NCBI GenBank assembly: GCA_020072965.1
Contig: JAIQFY010000011.1
Location: 14,925-78,924 of the forward strand
Source of the DNA: Terriglobia bacterium
GTDB lineage: Bacteria > Acidobacteriota > Terriglobia > JAIQFV01
Direction of reading: 5' to 3'
Length of the DNA: 64,000 nt
Positions within the stretch are counted from its first letter, which is position 1; each line of letters opens with the position of its first letter. Shown here piece by piece: positions 45,687 to 63,630 of this stretch. The position numbers were made by a program, and so were the translations under genes. Below the pieces are notes generated by a model, which was not told where the DNA came from, made no database searches, and saw only the letters and a program-made list of their open reading frames with translations.

Positions 45687-45871
45687 GATGAATCAAACAT
45701 TGAATCTGGGATGTAGCCGCAAATGATTAATGACAACTCCGGTCTAAATTGGATAGAATCTGCCCTTGCTTCCTGCTCGCCTCTTTTAAGGTCAATCACT
45801 CTCGTTGCCATTCCTGGAAACAATTTGCTTCTTTGAGCACACCACCTAGTATGAACTACAAGGAGATTACT

Positions 45872-46873
45872 ATGACCTCATTCACGGGCCCGCTGAAGGC
45901 GATCAAGATGACGCTCATCAGCGGCTTAGTGCTTGTGGGACTTGTGGGCGCCTTTTCCCTTTCCTTCTCGAAGTCGGCCAAGCCCGACAAGGGAAAGACT
46001 CCGCAAGCCACGTCGGCGAATTACAAGGCGGAGGACTATGTTGGGGCTGACACCTGCAAGACCTGCCACGAAGAGATTTACAACAATTTCCAAAAGACGG
46101 GCCACTTCAAACTGACGCGATATGGCAACTGGACGGCCGACAACAAAGGCTGCGAAGCCTGTCACGGACCGGGCAAGGCCCACGTGGATGGAGGCGGTGA
46201 TAAGACCAAGATTCATACGTTCGAGGATCAATCAGCCAAACAGATATCTGAAACGTGTCTCCGTTGCCATGCCGGAAAAGAGGAACACAACAATTTCCGA
46301 CGGGGTGAACACTGGCGGAACGATGTGAGCTGTATCAACTGTCATGCGCCCCATTCGCCAACGGCCACAGATCTTAAAATGTTGGTCCAGAAGGAACCGA
46401 TGCTCTGCATCTCCTGCCACAGCGAGATCAAAGCGCAGTTCAATATGCCTTTCCGTCACAAGGTGATGGAAAACACCACGAAGGGCAACGTGCTGGAAGG
46501 CACCATGAAGTGTACTGATTGCCATAATCCTCATGGCGGGTTTGAACAGAAGCAGGTGAGGCTGGCAACGGGAGGAGATGCCCCCTGCATGAAGTGTCAC
46601 GCCGACAAACAGGGACCCTTTGTATTCGAGCATGCGCCGTTGAGGGAGGAGGGTTGCACGATTTGCCATATCCCGCACGGGTCGAATAATCCAAAACTGC
46701 TGAAGCGCAATGAAGTCCGGATACTCTGCCTGGAATGCCACAGCAATGCGGGCACCGTGGGAGCGCCTGATACTCCGTCGTTCCATAACCAGGCAACAGC
46801 GCGATTCCAGAACTGCACGACCTGCCATGTCAAGATTCACGGCTCGAATCTCGATCGATTCTACTTCCGTTGA
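45872..46873 (+). CDS. Decaheme c-type cytochrome, MtrA/PioA/MtoA-like periplasmic conduit cytochrome
   Basis: 10 CXXCH motifs (CKTCH, CEACH, CLRCH, CINCH, CISCH, CTDCH, CMKCH, CTICH, CLECH, CTTCH). 333 aa. Signal/TM at N-terminus. RBS AAGGAG 7 nt upstream. Confidence 0.8.
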   Translation: MTSFTGPLKAIKMTLISGLVLVGLVGAFSLSFSKSAKPDKGKTPQATSANYKAEDYVGADTCKTCHEEIYNNFQKTGHFKLTRYGNWTADNKGCEACHGPGKAHVDGGGDKTKIHTFEDQSAKQISETCLRCHAGKEEHNNFRRGEHWRNDVSCINCHAPHSPTATDLKMLVQKEPMLCISCHSEIKAQFNMPFRHKVMENTTKGNVLEGTMKCTDCHNPHGGFEQKQVRLATGGDAPCMKCHADKQGPFVFEHAPLREEGCTICHIPHGSNNPKLLKRNEVRILCLECHSNAGTVGAPDTPSFHNQATARFQNCTTCHVKIHGSNLDRFYFR

Positions 46874-46922
46874 CGTGTGAGGGGCCTACACCGCTAACGA
46901 TATTTTTGGAGAAACGCACATC

Positions 46923-48932
46923 ATGAAAAATAAAATCGGATTCACGCTTTTGATCGTGCTGGGGATCGCGATGGGGGCATTGGTGGTCCGTGCACAGTCC
47001 ACTCCCCCCTCCAGCGATACGGTCCTGGGGGGTTATACCGTGACCCAGGATGCCGAGTTGGGGGTGCGGTTTTTGGGCCGAGACGGGAATGAGAATAAAT
47101 ACCGCAGCGATCTGAATTACGGCCGGGGCTTCCGGCTCTTCAACTATGATTTCCTGGCGCGATCGAAGGACGGCCACGGAGGCTTTTTTGATCTATTCCG
47201 TGTGACGGCGCTCGGCTGGGGTGGGGATCCCAACGAGTTTCTGCGCGTGGATGTCGAGAAGAACAAGTGGTACCGTTTTGATGCCACTTTCCGCCAGTTT
47301 GATTATTTCAACAACCTCACCAATCTGGCGCTGAACCAGCACCTCGCCGATAACAGTCGCAAATTCGACGATTTCAATTTGGCGCTCTTCCCTGACAATC
47401 AGCACTTCAAGTTTTACGTCGGTTACACGTTTGACAAGAGCAGTGGGAATGCGACCACGACGTACGATTACCAGCGCGATGAGTTCCCCATCCAGTCTAA
47501 AGTCCGGTCCGTGGCCAATGACTGGCGGGTCGGCTTTGATGCCAAGGTGTGGGTGTTTGACCTTTCCTTTCTCCAGGGATACCGCATTTTTAAGGACGAT
47601 ACTACTTACGTGGTTCCCTCTCTTAATGTGGGAAATAACCCGACGAATACCAGCGTCATTAATTTCTTAACGCGGGATGTGCCGTCGCGCACCCACATGC
47701 CCTTTACCCGTTTCAGTGCCCACACGCTGATCAAGAAGAAGCTGGACTTTACCGGTCGGTTCATTTACTCAACTGGGACCACCACCTATAATTTCGCAGA
47801 GGCCGTGAAGGGGGTCGATGCCTCCAACAACAACATTCTCCTGGATCTTTTCAATGGACCCGGGAGCGCCCGGCGGCCTAACGGCATTGGTGATTTGGGG
47901 GCGAGTTTCTTTGCCACCGACCGTTTGACCATCTCGGAGACCTTCCGAGTAAACACTTTCCGCATTTCGGGCGGGTCGAACGTCTTCGAATCGTTGTTCC
48001 GCACTCGCACGACGGCATTTGGAACAACTACGCTTCCTCCGACTTTCATTTCCTCCCTGATCTTCGAACTGGTCGGATATCGTTTGTTCTCCAATTACAT
48101 TGAGGGGGACTACAAGTTCAGTCCAAAATTCTCCGGACATGTCGGTTATCGATATACGTCGCGGCGGGTGGAGTTGGGTACCTCGATTCAACCGCCTTTG
48201 GGAACGGCGCTCGATACCGACACCCAGTTCAACCACACCAACTCGGTGGTGGTGGGGTTCAAAGCACGCCCCGCTTCCATCTGGACCGTCTATTTTGACT
48301 TTGAGCGTGGCACGGCGGACAACGTGTTCACGCGGCTCTCCAATTACAACTACACCAACTTCCGCGTGCGCACCAGTGTCAAGCCGACAAAGACCCTGAC
48401 ATTTAACGCTTCCCTGGTGACCCGCGACAACAACAACCCCGCCCTCACCCAGGGGGGTCAGAACTTCGGTGTTGATGCCAAGGGGCGGATCTTTAGCGCG
48501 TCAGCGGATTTCAGCCCCAACTCGAAATTTACTTTCACAAGCGGCTATACCTATAACCGCCTTACCTCCGATTCCTCTATCATCTTTTTCCTCGGGGGCA
48601 TCCAGACCACAGGAACCAGCTTGTATTTCCTGAGGGACCATTACTTCTTTTTCAATTCCCACGTCCAGCTCCATCCTCGAGTGGGCCTTTTCTTCGGCTA
48701 TCGCATCGAGAAGGACACCGGCCAGGGAGACCAGGTTGCGAGTTCGCCGAGCCAGTTGATTTCGTCCTATCCGTTGCAGTTCCACTCACCCGAGGTTCGG
48801 TTGACTTTCAAACTGCTTGAGCATCTGGATTGGAATGCCGGGTTCCAGCGGTATGATTACAAGGAGAAATTCCTGAACAACCAAAACTACCGAGCGAATT
48901 TGCCTTACACTTCGCTTCGGCTCTACTTCTGA
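46923..48932 (+). CDS. Outer-membrane beta-barrel protein, MtrB/PioB-like porin partner
   Basis: Signal peptide. 669 aa, rich in alternating aromatic/Gly/Thr/Asn. C-terminal ...SLRLYF. Translationally adjacent to the decaheme gene. Confidence 0.65.
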   Translation: MKNKIGFTLLIVLGIAMGALVVRAQSTPPSSDTVLGGYTVTQDAELGVRFLGRDGNENKYRSDLNYGRGFRLFNYDFLARSKDGHGGFFDLFRVTALGWGGDPNEFLRVDVEKNKWYRFDATFRQFDYFNNLTNLALNQHLADNSRKFDDFNLALFPDNQHFKFYVGYTFDKSSGNATTTYDYQRDEFPIQSKVRSVANDWRVGFDAKVWVFDLSFLQGYRIFKDDTTYVVPSLNVGNNPTNTSVINFLTRDVPSRTHMPFTRFSAHTLIKKKLDFTGRFIYSTGTTTYNFAEAVKGVDASNNNILLDLFNGPGSARRPNGIGDLGASFFATDRLTISETFRVNTFRISGGSNVFESLFRTRTTAFGTTTLPPTFISSLIFELVGYRLFSNYIEGDYKFSPKFSGHVGYRYTSRRVELGTSIQPPLGTALDTDTQFNHTNSVVVGFKARPASIWTVYFDFERGTADNVFTRLSNYNYTNFRVRTSVKPTKTLTFNASLVTRDNNNPALTQGGQNFGVDAKGRIFSASADFSPNSKFTFTSGYTYNRLTSDSSIIFFLGGIQTTGTSLYFLRDHYFFFNSHVQLHPRVGLFFGYRIEKDTGQGDQVASSPSQLISSYPLQFHSPEVRLTFKLLEHLDWNAGFQRYDYKEKFLNNQNYRANLPYTSLRLYF

Positions 48933-49234: not shown

Positions 49235-50194
49235 ATGGTAAAGAAGCTCATATTAGCATTTACGTTCTTACTTGTTCTTGCAAGCCTATCTTTGGCCGCC
49301 AATCCCACTCCGGCACCGCTCAATGTCCCGACCTACAACTATTCGGAGTCGAATGGCTGTCCGAGTTGTCACTTCTCGTCGGGAACGGCAGGCGATCACA
49401 TGATGGAAGCGGTCGGCATGAGTATCGACAAGGGCAACACTGCTTTCACGCTCTCTGGCAGTGGCTGGCGTGCATCCCGGCATGCTCAATCCAACCATGG
49501 GTCCACGCAAAATACCTTCTGTGCAAAATGCCACTCTCCTCTTCAAGCCACACCTCAAGCGACCTTTAACAATGGGTTCCTGGAGAACACGGCGTTGATC
49601 GCTGATGGCCAAATGGAAGGTGTCACCTGTGCGGGGTGCCATCCGCCCCACGCCACCGTTCCTCGCCTTGGGATTTACCATTTCGGTCAGGACAAGACCA
49701 AGGCATCATCGTACACATTGATTCAGGAAGATGAGCAGGACCTGCTTTGCCTCAACTGCCACGTCAACCGACACAACGAGACCAACACTGCCTTTAAGCG
49801 GATGTACGACGCCGGCGTGCAGTGCACGGATTGCCACATGGCTCGCTATGGATTGACCAACAATGGTCAGGGTACAGTCCAAAAGCGCTTCCATGATTTC
49901 AAGGTGGCAGAGAATCTACCGTATTCCTGCGGTGTCGACGGGGCGGTTTCTGGATTCCGGTGCCATCCCGGCTTCAGCACAGAAGCAACTCTCGCCTTCC
50001 TGCCCTTCCTGAAGGAGCAGCACAGCGATTGGTGGCCTCTGACTCAGAGTGCCGGCAAGAGAGGCAATGCGACGGCTACTAGGACCCTGGCAACACCGGC
50101 CGATTATATGGACCTCTGGAAAGAGATCCAGAACGGGACTACCCGGGTGCAGAGCGAAGCGAAACGAGTGGATCGAACTCAAGCTGCCCAGTAA
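49235..50194 (+). CDS. Secreted pentaheme c-type cytochrome
   Basis: Sec signal MVKKLILAFTFLLVLASLSLA. 5 CXXCH motifs (CPSCH, CAKCH, CAGCH, CLNCH, CTDCH). RBS AAAGGA. Confidence 0.8.
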   Translation: MVKKLILAFTFLLVLASLSLAANPTPAPLNVPTYNYSESNGCPSCHFSSGTAGDHMMEAVGMSIDKGNTAFTLSGSGWRASRHAQSNHGSTQNTFCAKCHSPLQATPQATFNNGFLENTALIADGQMEGVTCAGCHPPHATVPRLGIYHFGQDKTKASSYTLIQEDEQDLLCLNCHVNRHNETNTAFKRMYDAGVQCTDCHMARYGLTNNGQGTVQKRFHDFKVAENLPYSCGVDGAVSGFRCHPGFSTEATLAFLPFLKEQHSDWWPLTQSAGKRGNATATRTLATPADYMDLWKEIQNGTTRVQSEAKRVDRTQAAQ

Positions 50195-50372: not shown

Positions 50373-51161
50373 ATGGACTCATCAAATAGAAGACGTTTTG
50401 TTAAGAACGTGGGTGGAATCGCGATCGGTGCAGTCGCTGGGTCCGGGGTTACCCGGCTCCTTTCTTCGGACGAAGCGCCACTTGCGATTCCGGCTTTGCC
50501 TTGGCCTTATGTGGATTTGGATCCGATTGCAGTAGCCGAGAGAGCGTACCTGGGTTATTCCAACGGTGGGTGCATGTACGGGGCATTCGAGGGAATTATC
50601 GGGGAGTTACGTACCAAGCTGGGAGCACCATTCGATACCTTTCCTACCACCATGATGAAATACGGTGGCGGGGGGGTCGCCGGTTGGGGCAGTCTCTGTG
50701 GAGCGTTGAATGGCGTCGCGGCAGCCATTTATCTTTTGAAGGATTCAAAAACCGGAAATGATCTGATCAGTGAAATCTTTAACTGGTACGGAGTAGAAAA
50801 GCTCCCAAATTACCGACCAAAAACCCCGAAGTTTGAAATTGCAACCACTATTTCGGAGTCCCAGTTGTGTCATGTGTCTGTCACCAAGTGGGCTAATCAC
50901 ACGGGTTTCAAAACGGGCTCTCCCGAGCGCGCTGAAAGATGTGCGTGGCTCACTGCTTCTGTCGCCAAGTACACCACAGAATTGCTGAACAAGCAGCTCG
51001 CCGGGACTTACCAGCGGGCGCACCAAACCCCCGCGAAGGTTACTCTGTGTTTGCAGTGCCATGGACCCAGCGGCACGGTAGCCAATGTCCATATTACCGG
51101 GGGTCAAAGTAACTGCACCTCGTGTCATCATCGACACTGGGCTGGAGGAGTCGAGTTCTGA
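50373..51161 (+). CDS. C_GCAxxG_C_C family redox protein with C-terminal diheme c domain (split-Soret cytochrome-like), Tat signal
   Basis: SNRRRFVKNVG twin-arginine leader. Cys pattern C...CGALNG...C...C. CLQCH and CTSCH at the C-terminus. RBS AGGAGG. Confidence 0.65.
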   Translation: MDSSNRRRFVKNVGGIAIGAVAGSGVTRLLSSDEAPLAIPALPWPYVDLDPIAVAERAYLGYSNGGCMYGAFEGIIGELRTKLGAPFDTFPTTMMKYGGGGVAGWGSLCGALNGVAAAIYLLKDSKTGNDLISEIFNWYGVEKLPNYRPKTPKFEIATTISESQLCHVSVTKWANHTGFKTGSPERAERCAWLTASVAKYTTELLNKQLAGTYQRAHQTPAKVTLCLQCHGPSGTVANVHITGGQSNCTSCHHRHWAGGVEF

Positions 51162-51348: not shown

Positions 51349-51409
51349 CTTCGAATGGTTCTGAATATCGCGCCATGTCAATTGAGGGGTCGCCAACGTA
51401 GTGCCTCTG

Positions 51410-51786
51410 TTGAATCCGTCGATTGCCACATGGCTCCGTATGGACTGACCAACAACGGCCAGGGAACGGTGCGGAAGCGCTTCCATGATTTCAAGGTGGC
51501 CCAGAATCTTCCCTATTCGTGCGGGGTGGATGGGTCTGTGAATGGATTTGTTTGCCACGCGGGATTCAACACAGAATCGGCTCTCGCCTTCCTTCCCTAC
51601 ATGAAGGAGCAGCACAGCGACTGGTGACCGGTAAACTCAAGCACCGGCAAGAGGGCCGCGAGCACAGCCGTGGGTGCGCTGCAGACTCCAGAAGATTACA
51701 TGGCACTCTGGAAGCGAATCCAAGATCGAGGCGGACAACTCCCGCTTAAGCACAAGCAAGTTGACCGGAAAGCGATTCATCTCTAG
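51410..51786 (+). pseudogene. Degenerate 3' fragment of a paralog of the pentaheme cytochrome gene (in-frame TGG TGA stop, first heme Cys lost)
   Basis: SVDCHMAPYGLTNNGQGTVRKRFHDFKVAQNLPYSCGVDGSVNGFVCHAGF...KEQHSDW* aligns with 49835-50194 of the intact gene at about 80% nt identity. TGGTGG has become TGGTGA. Homology continues after the stop and through the terminator. Confidence 0.7.
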
Positions 51787-52228: not shown

Positions 52229-53887
52229 TTGTCCCAGGGCATGATTGAATTCTCTATGAAATCAAACGGAAAGACACGGATGTCCAACGAAAGTTCGTGG
52301 ATTGAAGGAACAACAACTCAAGCTCCCCAGAAACTCAGTCCTACTGCCGAAAGAGGCGAGGAAAAAGCCGGGCCCGCAAATGGAGGATTTCTTGATGCTT
52401 CCATCCGTTTTCTGAGCACCGTTCGCCTGGGACTCTACCTGTTGATTATCCTCGTTGTCATCTCGTTTATTGGAACGATCATCCCCCAAAAACCGAACAC
52501 CTCTCCTGAAAACCTGCAAAGAATGTTTGCCCCCGCCAACCTCGTGCTGCTGGACCGGATTGGCATCCTCGATATTTTTCACGCCTGGTGGTTCAAGGCG
52601 TTACTGACGCTGCTCGGCCTGAACATCGTCTTCGCATCACTGGACCGCTTCTCACACGCATGGAGATACATCAGGCGCCCGGCGCGATGGCTCACCGAAA
52701 CGGTAATTCGAGCCCAGCACCAGCATGCCGAAATCCACTTCCAGACTTCCCTCGAGGAAACCGAGCGAGCGGTCAAAGGGCGGTTGAGGAAGTGCCTGGG
52801 GCATCCTGAGGAGACCGAAAGGGAGGGACGGAAGGTCATCTTTGCGCAACGGCATGTTTATTCGCGCCTGGCCGCCTATGCAATTCATCTCAGCCTCCTG
52901 GTCATCTTCGCCGGGGGATTGATCGGATTGGAATTGGGCTACAAGGCGCGGGTATCTTTGAGGGAAGGAGAATCCACTTCAAAGGTCATCCTTTTCGATA
53001 CCACGCGGAGTGTCGTGGAGGCCGCAGGGGAACCGAGGTTCCTTGAGAAGGAAATTCCCTTCACGCTTCAACTGGACAAGGCCGAAGTCGTTTTTAACAA
53101 CCCCAAAGACTCCAGCCTTCTCCACCGCGATGACATCCAGAGTCCCGGTGTGGTGAAGAACTGGTACTGCACGATGTCTGTTTGGGAAAATGGGGTCAAG
53201 CAAAGCACCCAGGTGGTGGCGGTGAACCAACCGCTTTCGCACCGGGGATTCCGGTTCTTTCAAAGTGGTTTTGATTTCGGGAACGGACTGAAGGAATTTA
53301 CATTTCAGGTTCGTTTGAAGGGGGCGGGCGGACAATCCTCTGAAGCCGTTTACAAGGTTCGAAAGGGGGACTCCTTCGAGATCAAAGACGCCCACCTGGT
53401 CGCCACGCCGGTGCGGTCGGGAATCATGCCGCAAGCCGATCTGCCCTTTGTATTTCTCAGCCTCCAAAGCAGCGATGGGAAGCCCCCTCTCCAGCTGCCG
53501 GTCTTCGACGAGCCCACGACCCAAAAAATGCGCCAGGGGGCGAACGATGCATCGCCGCTTCCTAAACCTCCTGATGGGATGGAGATTTTTCTGATCGACG
53601 CCACCCCGGAGTTCTCGACGACCCTTCAGGTCTCGCGTGATCCCGGAGTTAACACGGTGTGGGCGGGATGCATTCTCCTGATGTTGGGATTGATGGTGGC
53701 CTTTTACTTTTCGCATCAACGGGTGTGGGCCCTGTTGATTCCCGTTGAGGACGGCACGACGGTCGTCCTTGGCGGTGATTCCAGCAAGAACCGATCTGCT
53801 TTCGCAAGAAAATTTCAGCATCTTGTCGACTTGATGGGGCCACAGGAAGAAGCCTCCCCCGTGAGGCAGGATTTCAAGGAGAAGTAA
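52229..53887 (+). CDS. resB: Cytochrome c biogenesis protein ResB/CcsB (system II)
   Basis: N-terminal TM after FLDASIRFLSTVRLGLYLLIIL. Large periplasmic domain. C-terminal TM. Immediately followed by ccsA. Confidence 0.85.
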   Translation: MSQGMIEFSMKSNGKTRMSNESSWIEGTTTQAPQKLSPTAERGEEKAGPANGGFLDASIRFLSTVRLGLYLLIILVVISFIGTIIPQKPNTSPENLQRMFAPANLVLLDRIGILDIFHAWWFKALLTLLGLNIVFASLDRFSHAWRYIRRPARWLTETVIRAQHQHAEIHFQTSLEETERAVKGRLRKCLGHPEETEREGRKVIFAQRHVYSRLAAYAIHLSLLVIFAGGLIGLELGYKARVSLREGESTSKVILFDTTRSVVEAAGEPRFLEKEIPFTLQLDKAEVVFNNPKDSSLLHRDDIQSPGVVKNWYCTMSVWENGVKQSTQVVAVNQPLSHRGFRFFQSGFDFGNGLKEFTFQVRLKGAGGQSSEAVYKVRKGDSFEIKDAHLVATPVRSGIMPQADLPFVFLSLQSSDGKPPLQLPVFDEPTTQKMRQGANDASPLPKPPDGMEIFLIDATPEFSTTLQVSRDPGVNTVWAGCILLMLGLMVAFYFSHQRVWALLIPVEDGTTVVLGGDSSKNRSAFARKFQHLVDLMGPQEEASPVRQDFKEK

Positions 53888-53890
53888 ATC

Positions 53891-55375
53891 ATGAGTCGTG
53901 TTCATACCGGACCATTGACCGAAGGTGACGGGGCAGCACAGAAGAAGATACTTTGGCCGATGCTCTCCAGTGTTCTTGGGATGGTGCTGCTGGCGTTATT
54001 TGTGATCCCGAACATTCTCAAGAGCGGGGCCGGATTGATGAGTCCGGGAGCCCTGCTCAGTCTGGCCATCATTTTTTACGTCGGCTCCTCGGCCTTGCTG
54101 ATCAGCTATCTGCTGCGGCGCGTGGAGCGTCTCCTCCAGGTGGCCAAAGGGTTGATACTGGTGGGCTTCATCTTTCACACCGGTGCCATCGTCGCCCACT
54201 GGATGGTCGCAGGACGTCCGCCCATTTCAAACATCTTTGAAATGCTGATCAGTTTTGCCTGGGCCCTCATTGCCCTGGATTATGTTTTCCAGCGAATCTA
54301 TAAGCTCAAGATCCTCAGTTCGTTCAGTGTCCCCATCGCCACCCTGGCAGTATTGCTTTCGACTATCCTGCCTGCGGACCCGGAGCGAACACTGCCCCCG
54401 GCACTCCAAAGTGTGTGGCTATACATCCATGTCACCTTTGCGATTTTCAGTTATGTCGCCTGTGCCATTGCGTTTGTGGCTTCAATCCTCTACCTCGTCA
54501 AAGACCGCGTGAAGCTCGAGACTTTCGGAATGATCACACAGGCCCTCACGGTCACGACCATCGCGGGGATTGACTGGCTGGGAAATGCGGACACGGCCCA
54601 CCGGCACTTCAACATCCTGCTGCGGGGTGAGTTCTTCCTCAGCCTCCTCTACAAAGGACGTGAGATTGCCATTCCAGGGATGGAAAAGACTTACCTGGTC
54701 GCGGGACTGCCCTTTGCCGGCAACGCCTTGCGGGTCTCCCTTCTGGTAGCCGTCATCGGACTGGTCCTGTACCTGGCAAAAGCCTCTTCGAAAACTCTGC
54801 TCCGGGTGACCCAGTTGGGATTTCTCGCACAGCTGGCATCAGTGGCCGTCATTCTGGCCGCGACACTCAGTAACTCGACGCAGCAGATGATCGACAGGAT
54901 TCCCGGACAAGTTCTGGGCCAGTTTGACGCGGCGGCCCTGGCGAAGGCGGCCACGGTCAGCATCAAATCCATTCCATTCATCTTTGCGGGACTCCTCGTG
55001 GCGCTGGTCACCACACTGTTATTTCTTATCTTGCACTCCCGGCATGAGGCCATTGTATCTTCGCTCCCCGATGGCAAGCTGCTGGACGAGGTCAATTACA
55101 AGGTCGTCACCATCGCGTTTCCATTACTCACCTTGATGATTGCCACGGGAGCCTTCTGGGCCAATCGCACCTGGGGTTCTTACTGGAACTGGGACCCCAA
55201 GGAAGTGGGGGCTCTGATTACCTGGCTGGTTTATGCAGCCTACCTGCATATGCGCATCGTTCGCGGCTGGGCCGGCCGGCGAGCCGCCTATTTCGCTATC
55301 ATCGGTTTTGTGTTTGTCCTCTTTACGTTCATTGGGATTAGTTATCTGCTCCCGGGCCTCCATGCGTACGCTTGA
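53891..55375 (+). CDS. ccsA: Cytochrome c-type biogenesis protein CcsA/ResC (system II heme lyase), long form (494 aa)
   Basis: Multi-[28 protein letters not shown] is the Trp-rich WWD heme-handling motif. Confidence 0.85.
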
Positions 55376-58840: not shown

Positions 58841-58909
58841 CCCCGACGGATGGGGGCGGCGGGCCTCTGTGTTTTTTCGGCCCGGAGCTACGAGCCTTCA
58901 AGAAAAACT

Positions 58910-60700
58910 ATGCAATCCCGGAAGCGACAACGACAAAGCATGCTGGTGCTGGTGATCTTTCTGCTCGCAGTCTTTCTCGTCGTGTCTTATCGATTCTACA
59001 AGGAAACCGAAATCAAGGTGGTGGCACAGTCCGGCGTTCAACAATGGTTGATTGCAGAAACGGCCGCGGCGGGAGTGGAAGGGTACTTTGACACCATTTA
59101 CAAGCGCCTGGAAAAGGAATCCACGACCCTCGCCGCCCGCCCTGCGAACCAGCCCATTGCAGACCATTCACTCGACGCACTCTATCTCGATTTGTCGTAC
59201 CGGATTGCAGGGGTCTACCTGCTGAACGACAAATTTCAGATCGAGGTCTTTCGATCCAACGATCCCCAACTACGTAGTTATCTGCCGCAGATCACGGGAC
59301 CCTTGATGACCGCCCTTCTGCGCGGAGAACATGTGGTAGGCTCTCCGGTCGCCATCAGTAACTATGAATACATCTTCGAGATCCTCGAACCGGTGCTCGA
59401 TTCGGGGGGGCACTTGAAGATGGCCCTCGGCGCCGCGGTTCCCCTCCGGAATTTGAGCTCTCTCTATCTCGACCCGTTGAATTCCACCAAGACCCATTAC
59501 GCGTGGATGCTGGATCAGAAAGGGATGCTTCTCTACAATCCACGTCACGCCGAGATGCTGGGACACCAGATTCTCCAAAACCGCCAGGAGTGTTTTTCCT
59601 GCCACCTTAATTTCGAGACGGAAGAACGTATGGTGCGCGGGGATACGGGGACGGCGACCATCGAATTCAGGAACAAGGACCGGGACCTGGTCGCCTTTAC
59701 ACCCATCCGCATGGGTAATCAGCATTGGTCGCTCGCCGTTTCGATCCCCTATACCGAGGCCACCGCACTCACCCGTGACAGTTTTCGCAACACTCTCCTC
59801 CTGGTGGCCTTCTTCTTCTCGATCATTATTGGCGGGGCGGTGCTGGTCATGAACATGCACGCCCGCAGCATCAAGGCCGAAGAGGAGGCGCGGTTCACAA
59901 GACGGCAGGCGCAACTCGAGCGTCAATTGCTGCAGTCAGAACAACTGGCGGGCATCGGCCGTATGACCTCGCAGATTGCCCATCAAATCAAGACGCCGCT
60001 CTCGGCCATCTCGTTGAACATTGAGTATCTCGAAAAAGAAGTCCGAAAGCGCCTCCTTTCCAGTGGCGTCCCGATGGGTGATGCTTCGCTGGAAGACATC
60101 GAGAATGTCACGGCTTCAGTCACCAGCGAGATTCAGCGTCTGGCCGCTTTGATCGAAGACTATTTGAAATTTGCGCGCCTTCCTAAACCCGTCTTTCATC
60201 CGGGTTCACTGACCGAAATGTTGGAAAGCCAGGCGGCGTTTTTGGAAAAGGAAATGGGAGACCGTCACATTCAGTTGAAGGTAGACGCTGCGCCTGCGGG
60301 AAGCGGTGAGGCCGGCGGCCCCGATAAGATTCTGATGGATGAAAACCTGATCTGGCAGGCCGTTACCAATCTCATCCGCAACTCGGCCGAGGCAATGCCC
60401 TCAGGCGGTACGATCACACTGCGCGTAAGATGCGCCGACAATGACGTCGAATTCAAAGTCTCGGACGAAGGGACCGGAATCCCCGAAGACAAGCTCCCCC
60501 ACATCTTTGAACCCTTCTTCACGACCAAGCCTGACGGAACCGGATTGGGACTCTCTTATGTCCACCGGGTCGTCACCGAACATCACGCTTTCATCGCCTG
60601 CCAGAGCCGCATGGGCGTGGGAACATCATTCACGATTAACTTTCCCCGGTGGACAGACCAATCCCTGGAAGATGGAGCCTATGTTGATGCTAAATCGTGA
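58910..60700 (+). CDS. Sensor histidine kinase with periplasmic sensor domain containing a CXXCH heme-binding motif
   Basis: Two TM helices flank an approx. 280-aa periplasmic domain containing CFSCH. H-box IAHQIKTPLSAIS. HATPase_c N/G boxes (IRNSAEAM, DEGTGIP, GLGLSY). Confidence 0.8.
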   Translation: MQSRKRQRQSMLVLVIFLLAVFLVVSYRFYKETEIKVVAQSGVQQWLIAETAAAGVEGYFDTIYKRLEKESTTLAARPANQPIADHSLDALYLDLSYRIAGVYLLNDKFQIEVFRSNDPQLRSYLPQITGPLMTALLRGEHVVGSPVAISNYEYIFEILEPVLDSGGHLKMALGAAVPLRNLSSLYLDPLNSTKTHYAWMLDQKGMLLYNPRHAEMLGHQILQNRQECFSCHLNFETEERMVRGDTGTATIEFRNKDRDLVAFTPIRMGNQHWSLAVSIPYTEATALTRDSFRNTLLLVAFFFSIIIGGAVLVMNMHARSIKAEEEARFTRRQAQLERQLLQSEQLAGIGRMTSQIAHQIKTPLSAISLNIEYLEKEVRKRLLSSGVPMGDASLEDIENVTASVTSEIQRLAALIEDYLKFARLPKPVFHPGSLTEMLESQAAFLEKEMGDRHIQLKVDAAPAGSGEAGGPDKILMDENLIWQAVTNLIRNSAEAMPSGGTITLRVRCADNDVEFKVSDEGTGIPEDKLPHIFEPFFTTKPDGTGLGLSYVHRVVTEHHAFIACQSRMGVGTSFTINFPRWTDQSLEDGAYVDAKS

Positions 60701-61799
60701 TTCAGATCCCCTGATTCGACAGCAGCGCCGGGGTCGAACCCGGAAATTGGCCCAGGGACGATCTCTCACAAGGCGGGCCCTGCGCCTTGTTTCCACGAGT
60801 CTCGTTTTTGGGACAGGTCTCCTCGCGGCCTTGCTGGGTTTTTCGGCAGTCAACGCAGGTTCCACATTCGGGTCGCCGGATTGTACCCTCTGCCATGCGA
60901 ATTCAAAAACCCCTGTTACCCAGGACATGCTCAAAGACTCTGTCCATGCACGGCTCACGTGTATTGATTGTCATACTGGAATCCTGAATGCTCCCCATGC
61001 CGAGAAGCCCCCAGCCGTAGACTGTGGATCCTGCCATGCCGCCGAATCAATGGGATGGCACAAGAGTCCGCACGCGGTGAGGCCGGGCGCTCCTACCTGT
61101 GTCGGTTGCCATGGAACTCATTCCATGCATGCAATTCGCCCCGGGAACAACTCTGTCATCAAGCTGCAGATTGCCCAGCTCTGCGAAAAATGTCACGACA
61201 AGCAATTTGCCAGCTACAAGACCAGCGTTCATGCCCGAGCCTTGGAAAGAGGAGATGGAGAGGCGGCCACCTGCACCGATTGCCATGGCGGGCATGCCAT
61301 CCAAGGTCCCGAATCCGCCGGTTCGCCGGTGGCTCCTGCTTCCGTTTCCAGCACCTGCGGCGCCTGTCACGCCGATAAGAAGACCATGTCGATGTCCGGG
61401 CTCCCTACAGACCGGGTGTCCACATTCCGTAGCAGTTTTCACGCTGCCGCGTTGAGAATGGGGAACATGAAAGCTGCCACCTGTGCCTCATGCCATGGCG
61501 CCCATGACATCCTAGCTTCCCCCGATCCCGCCTCGCGCACCAGTCCGGCCAATTTGCCGAAGACATGCAGTCGATGCCATGCCGGTGTGAAGCAGGGGTT
61601 TGCCGGTGTCAGGATCCATGTTGATGTCAGCCCGACTGGGGCGAGAGCCGCCTGGTTTGTCCGAATCTTTTACATTGCATTCATCAGCATCCTGGTGCTG
61701 GGTTTCATCATTCACATTCTCGCCGAGCGCTTGGGGGCACTGAGAAAGAGAAGGATTGCGCACCGCGATGCTTCTTCGGAAAAGGGGGGTGTCCAATGA
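60681..61799 (+). CDS. Nonaheme c-type cytochrome with C-terminal membrane anchor
   Basis: 9 CXXCH. C-terminal TM helix WFVRIFYIAFISILVLGFIIHIL. Overlaps the histidine kinase stop by 20 nt. Confidence 0.8.
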   Translation: MLMLNRDSDPLIRQQRRGRTRKLAQGRSLTRRALRLVSTSLVFGTGLLAALLGFSAVNAGSTFGSPDCTLCHANSKTPVTQDMLKDSVHARLTCIDCHTGILNAPHAEKPPAVDCGSCHAAESMGWHKSPHAVRPGAPTCVGCHGTHSMHAIRPGNNSVIKLQIAQLCEKCHDKQFASYKTSVHARALERGDGEAATCTDCHGGHAIQGPESAGSPVAPASVSSTCGACHADKKTMSMSGLPTDRVSTFRSSFHAAALRMGNMKAATCASCHGAHDILASPDPASRTSPANLPKTCSRCHAGVKQGFAGVRIHVDVSPTGARAAWFVRIFYIAFISILVLGFIIHILAERLGALRKRRIAHRDASSEKGGVQ

Positions 61800-62524
61800 A
61801 TACCGCAGGTGGCCCCGAACAAGTAGACCGCAGGCCCTCGCGACAACCCGGCGCCACAATCAGCCGCCTCACATTATGGCAAAGGTGGGAGCACGGCCTG
61901 ATGGCACTTTCTGTCACGCTGCTCATCCTATCGGGTGTTGCTCTGACATACCATGAGCAAGCTTGGGCCCGATTCTTGATCTGGCTTATGGGCGGGTTGC
62001 AGGGCCGTCACTGGGTTCATCGAACCGCCGCCATAGGCCTCCTGGTCGCTGGTCTGCTGCATTTACTCGGCTTGATGCTATCTGAGCGGCATAAACGTGA
62101 TTTTCGTGAGGTCAAGCCAAGACCAAACGATTTCCGTGCCGCTTGGTCGGGGTTGAAATTTGCCTTTTCCGGAAAGGGGGAACCGCCCCATTACGGTTGG
62201 TTTACTCCCATGCAAAAGCTTCAATACTGGGGGGTGCTGATTGGATGTTTGTTGATGGGAGTCTCAGGGGTGCTTCTGTGGAACCCCGTCTTCACGCTGA
62301 ATTCCTTCCCCAAGTGGGTTCTGGACACCATGCTGGTCCTCCACGCCACGGAGGCCCAGTTCATCTTTGTGCTATTCATCCTCTGGCATCTATATGACGT
62401 CCACGTCGCGGAAGGAAATTTTCCGATGAACCCCGCCTGGCTTACAGGAAGGATGTCGGAGGAGCACTTCGCCCGGCAGCACCGTGCCTCCTGGGAAAAC
62501 GGTCGCTCCAAGGAGGAGGCATGA
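61796..62524 (+). CDS. Cytochrome b subunit (FdnI/HydC/PhsC-like dihaem b)
   Basis: 4-5 TM helices with conserved His (WEHGLMA, HRTAAIGLL, WHLYDVH). Start overlaps the upstream stop (ATGA). Confidence 0.75.
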   Translation: MNTAGGPEQVDRRPSRQPGATISRLTLWQRWEHGLMALSVTLLILSGVALTYHEQAWARFLIWLMGGLQGRHWVHRTAAIGLLVAGLLHLLGLMLSERHKRDFREVKPRPNDFRAAWSGLKFAFSGKGEPPHYGWFTPMQKLQYWGVLIGCLLMGVSGVLLWNPVFTLNSFPKWVLDTMLVLHATEAQFIFVLFILWHLYDVHVAEGNFPMNPAWLTGRMSEEHFARQHRASWENGRSKEEA

Positions 62525-63630
62525 CGCGCTCGCTCTTCAAGCCGCTTGCCCTCGAAGCCGCATTTGTCCTTCTCGGGATGACCTGGCTTGTAACCCCCCT
62601 CCCGGTCCGCGCTCAAGAAGACATTCGATGCCTTACTTGTCATGGCAAGCCCGGTTTCGAAAAAACGCTTCCCTCTGGCAAGAAGCTCGAATTATTTGTA
62701 GATCCGATGCGTTTGCGTCTCTCCGTCCACAAGGATCGGAAGTGCGTCGACTGCCATGCCGATGTGACCGAAGTCCCGCATCCCGAGATCCCCCAGAAAG
62801 TGAACTGTGGACGATGCCACTTCCTGGGTAACTCAGTAGGAGCCCCTCAGCTGCAAAGATACATCGAGTATGGGACGAGCGTTCATGGGAAAGCGCTGGC
62901 CGAAGGAAATCCCAAGGCTCCTGTTTGTCAGGATTGTCATGGAGACCATTTCATTCTTCCCGGCTCCGATGCCCGTTCTCAGGTGAACCACAAGAGCATT
63001 CCTCAGACCTGCGGGGGTTGTCATCTGGAAATCTACGCCCAGTACCAGGAATCAGTGCACGGACAGGCCCTGATCAAGGGAGTCAAAGATGCGCCGGTGT
63101 GCACCAACTGTCATGGAGAGCACAATATCCTCAAACCCCAGGACAAGACCTCCACCGTGAATCCCGGAACAGTAGTGAACACATGCTCCAAATGCCATTC
63201 CAAGGTCGTCATCATGGAGAAGTACGGGGTCAAGGCGGAGCAGGTGGCCACCTACCGGGAATCCTTCCATGGGATTGCCAACGAATTCGGGATGCTCAAG
63301 GCGGCCAACTGTGCCTCCTGTCATACCGCTCATCAGATTTTCCCGGAGCAGGACCCCCGTTCGACGGTCAATTCAAGAAACATCCCGCTCACCTGCGGAA
63401 AATGTCACCCCGGGGCCAATGCCAACTTTGCCCAGGGGCGAATTCATCTCAACCCCAAGGACAAATCGGCGGGAATCGTTTACTGGGTAGCATTGGGCTT
63501 CAAGGTCTTGACTCTATCAACACTCGCTGGTCTCCTGATCCATATCGCCCTCGACCTCTATCGCCGGTTCAAGAACCGGAAGCAGCCGGGTGAGAAGAAG
63601 GAAGTTGAAGTCGCGGAGAAGTCGCAATGA
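62521..63630 (+). CDS. Nonaheme c-type cytochrome with C-terminal membrane anchor (paralog of 60681-61799)
   Basis: Signal peptide, 9 CXXCH and a C-terminal TM helix. Same paired-CXXCH module organisation. Confidence 0.8.
   Translation: MTRSLFKPLALEAAFVLLGMTWLVTPLPVRAQEDIRCLTCHGKPGFEKTLPSGKKLELFVDPMRLRLSVHKDRKCVDCHADVTEVPHPEIPQKVNCGRCHFLGNSVGAPQLQRYIEYGTSVHGKALAEGNPKAPVCQDCHGDHFILPGSDARSQVNHKSIPQTCGGCHLEIYAQYQESVHGQALIKGVKDAPVCTNCHGEHNILKPQDKTSTVNPGTVVNTCSKCHSKVVIMEKYGVKAEQVATYRESFHGIANEFGMLKAANCASCHTAHQIFPEQDPRSTVNSRNIPLTCGKCHPGANANFAQGRIHLNPKDKSAGIVYWVALGFKVLTLSTLAGLLIHIALDLYRRFKNRKQPGEKKEVEVAEKSQ

Follow-up and report, generated by a model that had tools for sequence, protein, structure and literature searches.

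Acidobacteriota are among the most abundant bacteria of soil and peat, and their low-oxygen respiration is poorly understood. In a 64,000-nt stretch of a Terriglobia genome (contig JAIQFY010000011.1, hereafter the window), a gene for a decaheme cytochrome (cyt10) lies immediately upstream of a gene for a putative outer-membrane beta-barrel. An earlier interpretation made without database searches (the sequence-only reading) had proposed that the two form an MtrAB-like porin-cytochrome conduit. The locus raises the question of whether both proteins have the affinities implied, whether their association is conserved, and in which direction such a conduit might carry electrons. The two ORFs were found as described, with the ten CXXCH motifs of the first and the LRLYF terminus of the second, and the multiheme ORFs of the window form the all-forward island that had been noted, being all located on the + strand within 45.7–63.6 kb (Table 1).

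Table 1. Features of the cytochrome island, in window coordinates.
Coordinates	Strand	Feature	Details
45730..45759	+	sigma-70-like promoter candidate	ATGACA-18-TAGAAT, 10/12 matches, ~110 nt upstream of cyt10
45872..46873	+	cyt10, decaheme cytochrome gene	333 aa, 10 CXXCH, Sec-type N-terminus
46923..48932	+	MtrB-like outer-membrane beta-barrel gene	669 aa; proposed sheath for cyt10
49235..50194	+	cyt5, secreted pentaheme cytochrome gene	319 aa, 5 CXXCH, third gene of module
50373..51161	+	Tat-signal diheme protein, split-Soret-cytochrome-like, C_GCAxxG_C_C domain	262 aa, 2 CXXCH
51391..51777	+	3' remnant (pseudogene) of second cyt5 copy	tblastn match to L008 copy 2
52229..53887	+	ResB (CcsB-type), system II cytochrome c biogenesis	PF05140 264 bits, full length; start codon uncertain
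53891..55375	+	CcsA/CcsB heme-handling membrane protein, system II	494 aa; TIGR03144 and PF01578
55831..56718	+	cation diffusion facilitator (metal efflux) gene	PF01545, PF16916
56705..58840	+	CbcL/MtrH/MtoC-like inner-membrane c/b fusion; quinol/quinone oxidoreductase candidate	711 aa, 11 c-type hemes and HydC/FdnI-type cytochrome b
58850..60700	+	sensor histidine kinase	HisKA, HATPase_c; CXXCH in periplasmic domain
60675..61799	+	9-heme c-type cytochrome, C-terminal TM anchor	9 CXXCH; TM-like segment near C-terminus
61796..62524	+	cytochrome b, Ni_hydr_CYTB/FdnI-type	242 aa; PF01292 E 7.2e-15; 4 TM-like segments
62521..63630	+	9-heme c-type cytochrome, C-terminal TM anchor	369 aa, 9 CXXCH, signal peptide, TM-like 322-344

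The cyt10 gene starts with an ATG preceded a few bases 5' by the Shine-Dalgarno-like motif AAGGAG, and its product contains exactly 10 CXXCH motifs, 20 Cys and 22 His. Membership of the DmsE family TIGR03508 requires the whole protein to exceed the curated NCBIfam cut-off at full-length coverage, and cyt10 scored 252.5 bits (cut-off 192.2) over profile positions 1–257 of 258. Its best PDB match was MtrA (6r2q_A, E 2.8e-33), with 36.4% identity over 272 columns, all 10 CXXCH motifs aligned and 19 His-His columns (10 for proximal and 9 for other His). After DmsE, the next closest sequence model was that of Geobacter GSU2203/OmcK (NF041028), on which cyt10 obtained 235.6 bits, below the cut-off of 325. 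We conclude that cyt10 is a bona fide DmsE/MtrA-family decaheme cytochrome. The ten motifs, together with distal His residues, are predicted to bind heme with bis-His ligation, and a hydrophobic segment at residues 7–34 followed by SFS/KSAK is the probable export signal, as judged from the sequence. Its length equals that of the MtrA chain in PDB 6R2Q; PioA is considerably longer, so the earlier statement that cyt10 is exactly of MtrA/PioA/MtoA size holds for MtrA only. The promoter candidate upstream belongs to a class of sites that is no commoner in this region than in shuffled sequence.

The barrel protein has a Sec-type N-terminus (MKNKIGFTLLIVLGIAMGALVVRA/QS), a C-terminus ending in SLRLYF and no Cys residue. 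Structure prediction yielded a confident all-beta model, rather than a non-barrel or soluble protein, in which about 26 strands form a large fold predicted to be superimposable on MtrB. In the Foldseek search with this model, MtrB was the top match by TM-score (0.65/0.66 vs ≤0.47 for the others), at about 12% sequence identity. The analysis thus shows a barrel fold that resembles MtrB in particular. Of the family-model searches that the sequence-only reading had suggested for both proteins, the one with cyt10 bore out the proposal and the one with the barrel did not: the barrel had no Pfam match at E ≤0.01, PF11854 included, and no match to TIGR03509, and a genuine MtrB, used as a positive control, scored 510 and 551 bits on the MtrB/PioB family HMMs. 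More distant members of the barrel family reached at best E 0.023 with PF11854 and E 0.012 with TIGR03509. The model of the GSU2204 family (NF041027), which is labelled an MtrB/PioB-family barrel (PMC13188914), gave 19 bits with the window protein (cut-off 350) and weak matches in 7 of 18 distant members (best E 2.4e-9).

Neither phmmer with the barrel nor hmmsearch with a 43-sequence profile retrieved MtrB from the complete set of PDB sequences; chance matches to PAK1 kinase (E 0.12) were all that these searches returned. With hhalign, the narrow 43-sequence profile (Neff 2.6) gave a probability of 0.3% against genuine Photobacterium MtrB, and a profile of 95 sequences gave 80.5% (E 1.3e-5, 536 colinear columns) against a genuine PF11854 MtrB, in a comparison of a profile with a single sequence. 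Reversed, shuffled and block-shuffled controls did not exceed 2.8%, and LptD and FhuA reached 1.7% and 0.5%, respectively. Since the narrow profile missed MtrB, homology at the sequence level rests on one broader profile, with 80% probability. A word-indexed search with an alignment of distant members returned 15 matches, all unannotated, and thus offered no transitive route from the barrel to PF11854-annotated proteins. Given its failure on the MtrB/PioB HMMs, the barrel can be called MtrB-like only in its fold and in a remote profile signal.

A gap of 49 nt lies between the two genes, GGAG precedes the ATG of the barrel gene, and no terminator-like site intervenes, so they are probably co-transcribed. 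The description of the pair as translationally adjacent was accordingly right as to adjacency and slightly overstated, given a gap rather than an overlap. Among 80 related genome loci, 76 were testable (in the other four the barrel is at a contig edge), and all 76 of these acidobacterial loci have a decaheme homologue as the gene directly 5' of the barrel, at a median distance of 48.5 nt. The same pairing was observed in metagenome contexts (L001–L007), and the paired loci span classes whose barrels have diverged to about 40% identity. The genomic association of decaheme and barrel is therefore obligate and beyond chance. Over 1,000 database entries belong to the barrel family, which has 1,657 cluster representatives; its members are annotated as "hypothetical" throughout and lack a Pfam or NCBIfam signature.

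The barrel gene is directly followed by a pentaheme cytochrome gene (cyt5). In about 20 related loci a homologue (47–80% identity) occupies the same position, and this arrangement is conserved in Terriglobia and Blastocatellia. No ORF in the window matches TIGR03507, the model for the MtrC/OmcA surface decahemes. The module of this lineage thus consists of three genes, for the decaheme, the barrel and the secreted pentaheme cyt5, without an MtrC-type surface decaheme. The cyt5 protein starts with a Sec signal peptide that lacks a lipobox. Its AF2 model was mediocre (pLDDT 69) and Foldseek found nothing in the PDB with E <1; its profile showed weak similarity to NrfA and OcwA (E about 5e-4 to 9e-4), and the score on PF22113 was 23.2 bits, below the cut-off of 30. 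A periplasmic relay and a surface partner are both candidate roles for this protein.

The inner-membrane quinol-oxidoreductase candidates noted earlier were also recovered. In the CbcL/MtrH/MtoC family, a multiheme c-type part at the N-terminus is joined to a HydC/FdnI-type cytochrome b of about 6 TM helices at the C-terminus (PMC6295460). The 711-aa fusion, likened to CbcL through this described architecture, conforms to it, with 11 CXXCH motifs within residues 78–402, 5 TM-like segments after residue 426 and PF01292 (E 4e-15) over residues 482–654; TIGR01583 gave E 1.8e-15, below its cut-off. A split CbcL-like unit is formed by the first of the two 9-heme proteins and the 242-aa cytochrome b, whose start overlaps the stop of the preceding gene by 4 nt. 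This 9-heme gene has an uncertain start, as the ORF beginning at 60441 shares sequence with the kinase gene; homologues of the 9-heme protein occur in about 30 of the 80 loci. The ResB/CcsB genes, the fusion and its split version recur near the pair in 12–31 of these loci, a ResB homologue lying at most 6 kb from the barrel in 14 of them. The 494-aa CcsA/CcsB protein scored 239.9 bits on TIGR03144 (cut-off 187.6) and has about 11 TM-like segments. In the histidine kinase, a CFSCH motif at residue 248 lies between TM-like segments 26–52 and 311–338, and this protein is possibly a redox sensor for the island. A pyruvate:ferredoxin oxidoreductase gene was also observed near the island.

The pair shares with the Shewanella MtrCAB core (6R2Q) a decaheme of the same family and length (36% identical, with the ten heme motifs aligned), a barrel of the same fold class and size for which MtrB is the best structural match, and the position of the decaheme gene directly 5' of the barrel. 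However, the window has no MtrC/OmcA gene, the barrel lacks Cys and remains below the PF11854 and TIGR03509 thresholds, maturation is of the system II type (ResB/CcsB), and CymA is absent, CbcL-like proteins being present instead. Like Sideroxydans MtoAB(D) and Rhodopseudomonas PioAB(C), the locus has an A–B core that lacks a surface decaheme and is followed by the gene of a small electron carrier; an MtoD-like monoheme cytochrome is found in some relatives, and the window itself encodes a CbcL/MtoC-type inner-membrane partner. It differs from these systems in its third gene, which encodes the pentaheme cyt5 rather than a monoheme cytochrome or HiPIP, in a barrel outside the MtrB/PioB HMM family, and in its host, a member of the Acidobacteriota. 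In Geobacter sulfurreducens, the gene for OmcK (GSU2203) similarly adjoins a gene for an MtrB/PioB-type barrel (GSU2204), but cyt10 and the window barrel are below the respective cut-offs (325 and 350 bits) and do not qualify as members of this pair, and GSU2204 proteins have a CXXCH motif and a selenocysteine site, whereas the window barrel has no Cys. With the Geobacter Pcc (OmaB-OmbB-OmcB) and Ext systems, the window shares only the general porin-cytochrome principle. Pcc combines an 8-heme periplasmic cytochrome, a 12-heme outer cytochrome and an unrelated porin-like protein (PMC4245776); here a 10-heme DmsE-family protein serves as inner partner beside an MtrB-like barrel, and a Pcc-type conduit was rejected because of this mismatch in heme count and cytochrome family.

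Related clusters have been reported in Acidobacteriota, namely Group 5 MtrCAB in Bryobacterales (PMC8805035) and "EET2" (MtrC-DmsE-porin-CytC) in metagenome-assembled genomes (bioRxiv 10.64898/2026.05.27.727921). They come from the same phylum and class and contain a DmsE-family decaheme, then a porin without a recognisable conserved domain and a small cytochrome gene downstream of it. The EET2 porin compares with MtrB at TM 0.68 and 11.9% identity and the window barrel at TM 0.65 and 12%. By contrast, the published clusters begin with an MtrC-like decaheme and have Ccm maturation genes, and the window has no MtrC and carries ResB/CcsB. Membership in EET1 (porin-NHL-CytC) or EET2 was rejected because of differing gene content. 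As similar clusters have already been published, the window pair adds a divergent new member to a recognised type of system, in line with the MtrAB-like assignment of the sequence-only reading, which the TIGR03508 score, the ten-motif alignment with MtrA and the predicted barrel fold support; it reveals no new mechanism.

We consider it probable that the pair is the core of an MtrAB/MtoAB/PioAB-type conduit that carries electrons outward, via the CbcL-like proteins, to an extracellular acceptor. By analogy with MtrAB, cyt10 would be exported to the periplasm and thread into the lumen of the barrel, where its ten closely packed bis-His hemes would act as an insulated wire across the outer membrane. 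Electrons from the menaquinol pool would exit through the 711-aa fusion and the split 9-heme/cytochrome b unit, cross the periplasm, possibly via cyt5 as a candidate link, and pass through cyt10 to an acceptor such as Fe(III) minerals or humic or particulate organic matter. We agree with the caution expressed earlier that metal reduction and iron oxidation are not to be told apart from the window. The outward direction is weakly favoured by the closeness of cyt10 to GSU2203/OmcK, the closest model other than DmsE and one from a reducer, and by the nearby pyruvate:ferredoxin oxidoreductase gene; growth of Geobacter with iron oxides raised the expression of the GSU2203/GSU2204 gene pair (PMC4070692). 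The lack of an MtrC/OmcA-type terminal reductase in the window and the MtoD-like monoheme genes and fusions in related loci count against it.

The characterised AB modules without MtrC are the Fe(II)-oxidising MtoAB and PioAB, and MtrB of metal-reducing Shewanella has an N-terminal CXXC motif. The same conduit might thus run inward, taking up electrons from Fe(II), reduced humics or minerals for the quinone pool or an oxidase, which we regard as a less likely but serious alternative. It would account for a barrel without that CXXC motif, for the missing MtrC-type gene and for the order A–B–small cytochrome, as in mtoABD and pioABC (PMC10654088, PMC8805035). Many Blastocatellia relatives also carry a gene for a 113–138-aa monoheme class-I cytochrome downstream of the barrel, and in one family member such a domain is fused to the barrel, in an MtoD-like arrangement. 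The CbcL/MtrH/MtoC family occurs in Fe(II) oxidisers as well as in reducers (PMC6295460). However, the window itself encodes neither a HiPIP nor a terminal oxidase and lacks a monoheme gene, and MtrAB cores are reversible, with a phylogeny that does not split oxidising from reducing members (PMC8805035).

The two other explanations concern the substrate and the barrel itself. That TIGR03508 is the best model for cyt10, and that the island holds an accessory Tat-exported split-Soret-like redox protein, would fit a DmsEF-like conduit that supplies a catalytic reductase of a soluble substrate, located outside the cell or in the outer membrane, instead of passing electrons straight to minerals. 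We consider this very improbable, since the island has no genes for molybdopterin or other catalytic reductases and none of the 87 related loci contains a homologue of the Tat protein. This protein (NF047622, 192 bits, below the cut-off of 400; PF09719, E 7.5e-9) is a lineage-specific insertion and therefore lies outside the conserved module. The barrel could also be an ordinary solute or TonB-dependent-type transporter whose adjacency to a decaheme is incidental, given that TonB-dependent receptors had Foldseek E-values similar to that of MtrB and that no MtrB/PioB HMM matched. No plug or TonB-box domain and no Pfam TonB_dep_Rec match were detected in the barrel, the alignment with FhuA was at control level, and the decaheme adjoins the barrel in every testable locus of such divergent classes; this reading is strongly disfavoured and, in our view, extremely improbable.

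These results give a "hypothetical" barrel family an MtrB-like identity, always partnered with an MtrA-family decaheme, and this family is a concrete marker now missed by annotation pipelines and iron-cycling gene catalogues. Mtr-like systems, recently described from Bryobacterales, are thereby extended to other Terriglobia and to Blastocatellia and Pyrinomonadaceae. A bolder and rather improbable proposal is that the trio, counted in at least 276 species-level genomes from Terriglobia, Blastocatellia, Pyrinomonadaceae and Chloracidobacterium, is a distinct, MtrC-independent acidobacterial conduit, in which cyt5 would be the surface-exposed terminal electron-exchange protein replacing MtrC and would carry a non-canonical sixth heme at a C-X8-10-CH motif, possibly attached by ResB/CcsA. 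This motif is kept in 44 of 45 cyt5 family members. If the proposal is true, a dominant soil phylum has its own route for electron exchange with minerals and humic matter.

Scanning the window for Rfam families and tRNAs returned no match. The cation diffusion facilitator gene is syntenic in two related loci (L003 and L010). The cyt5 gene appears to have had a second copy in the window, of which a 3' remnant persists: the L008 copy 2 protein matches it over residues 197–325 only (72% identity), and the ORF at 51355-51627 is 76% identical to the C-terminus of cyt5.

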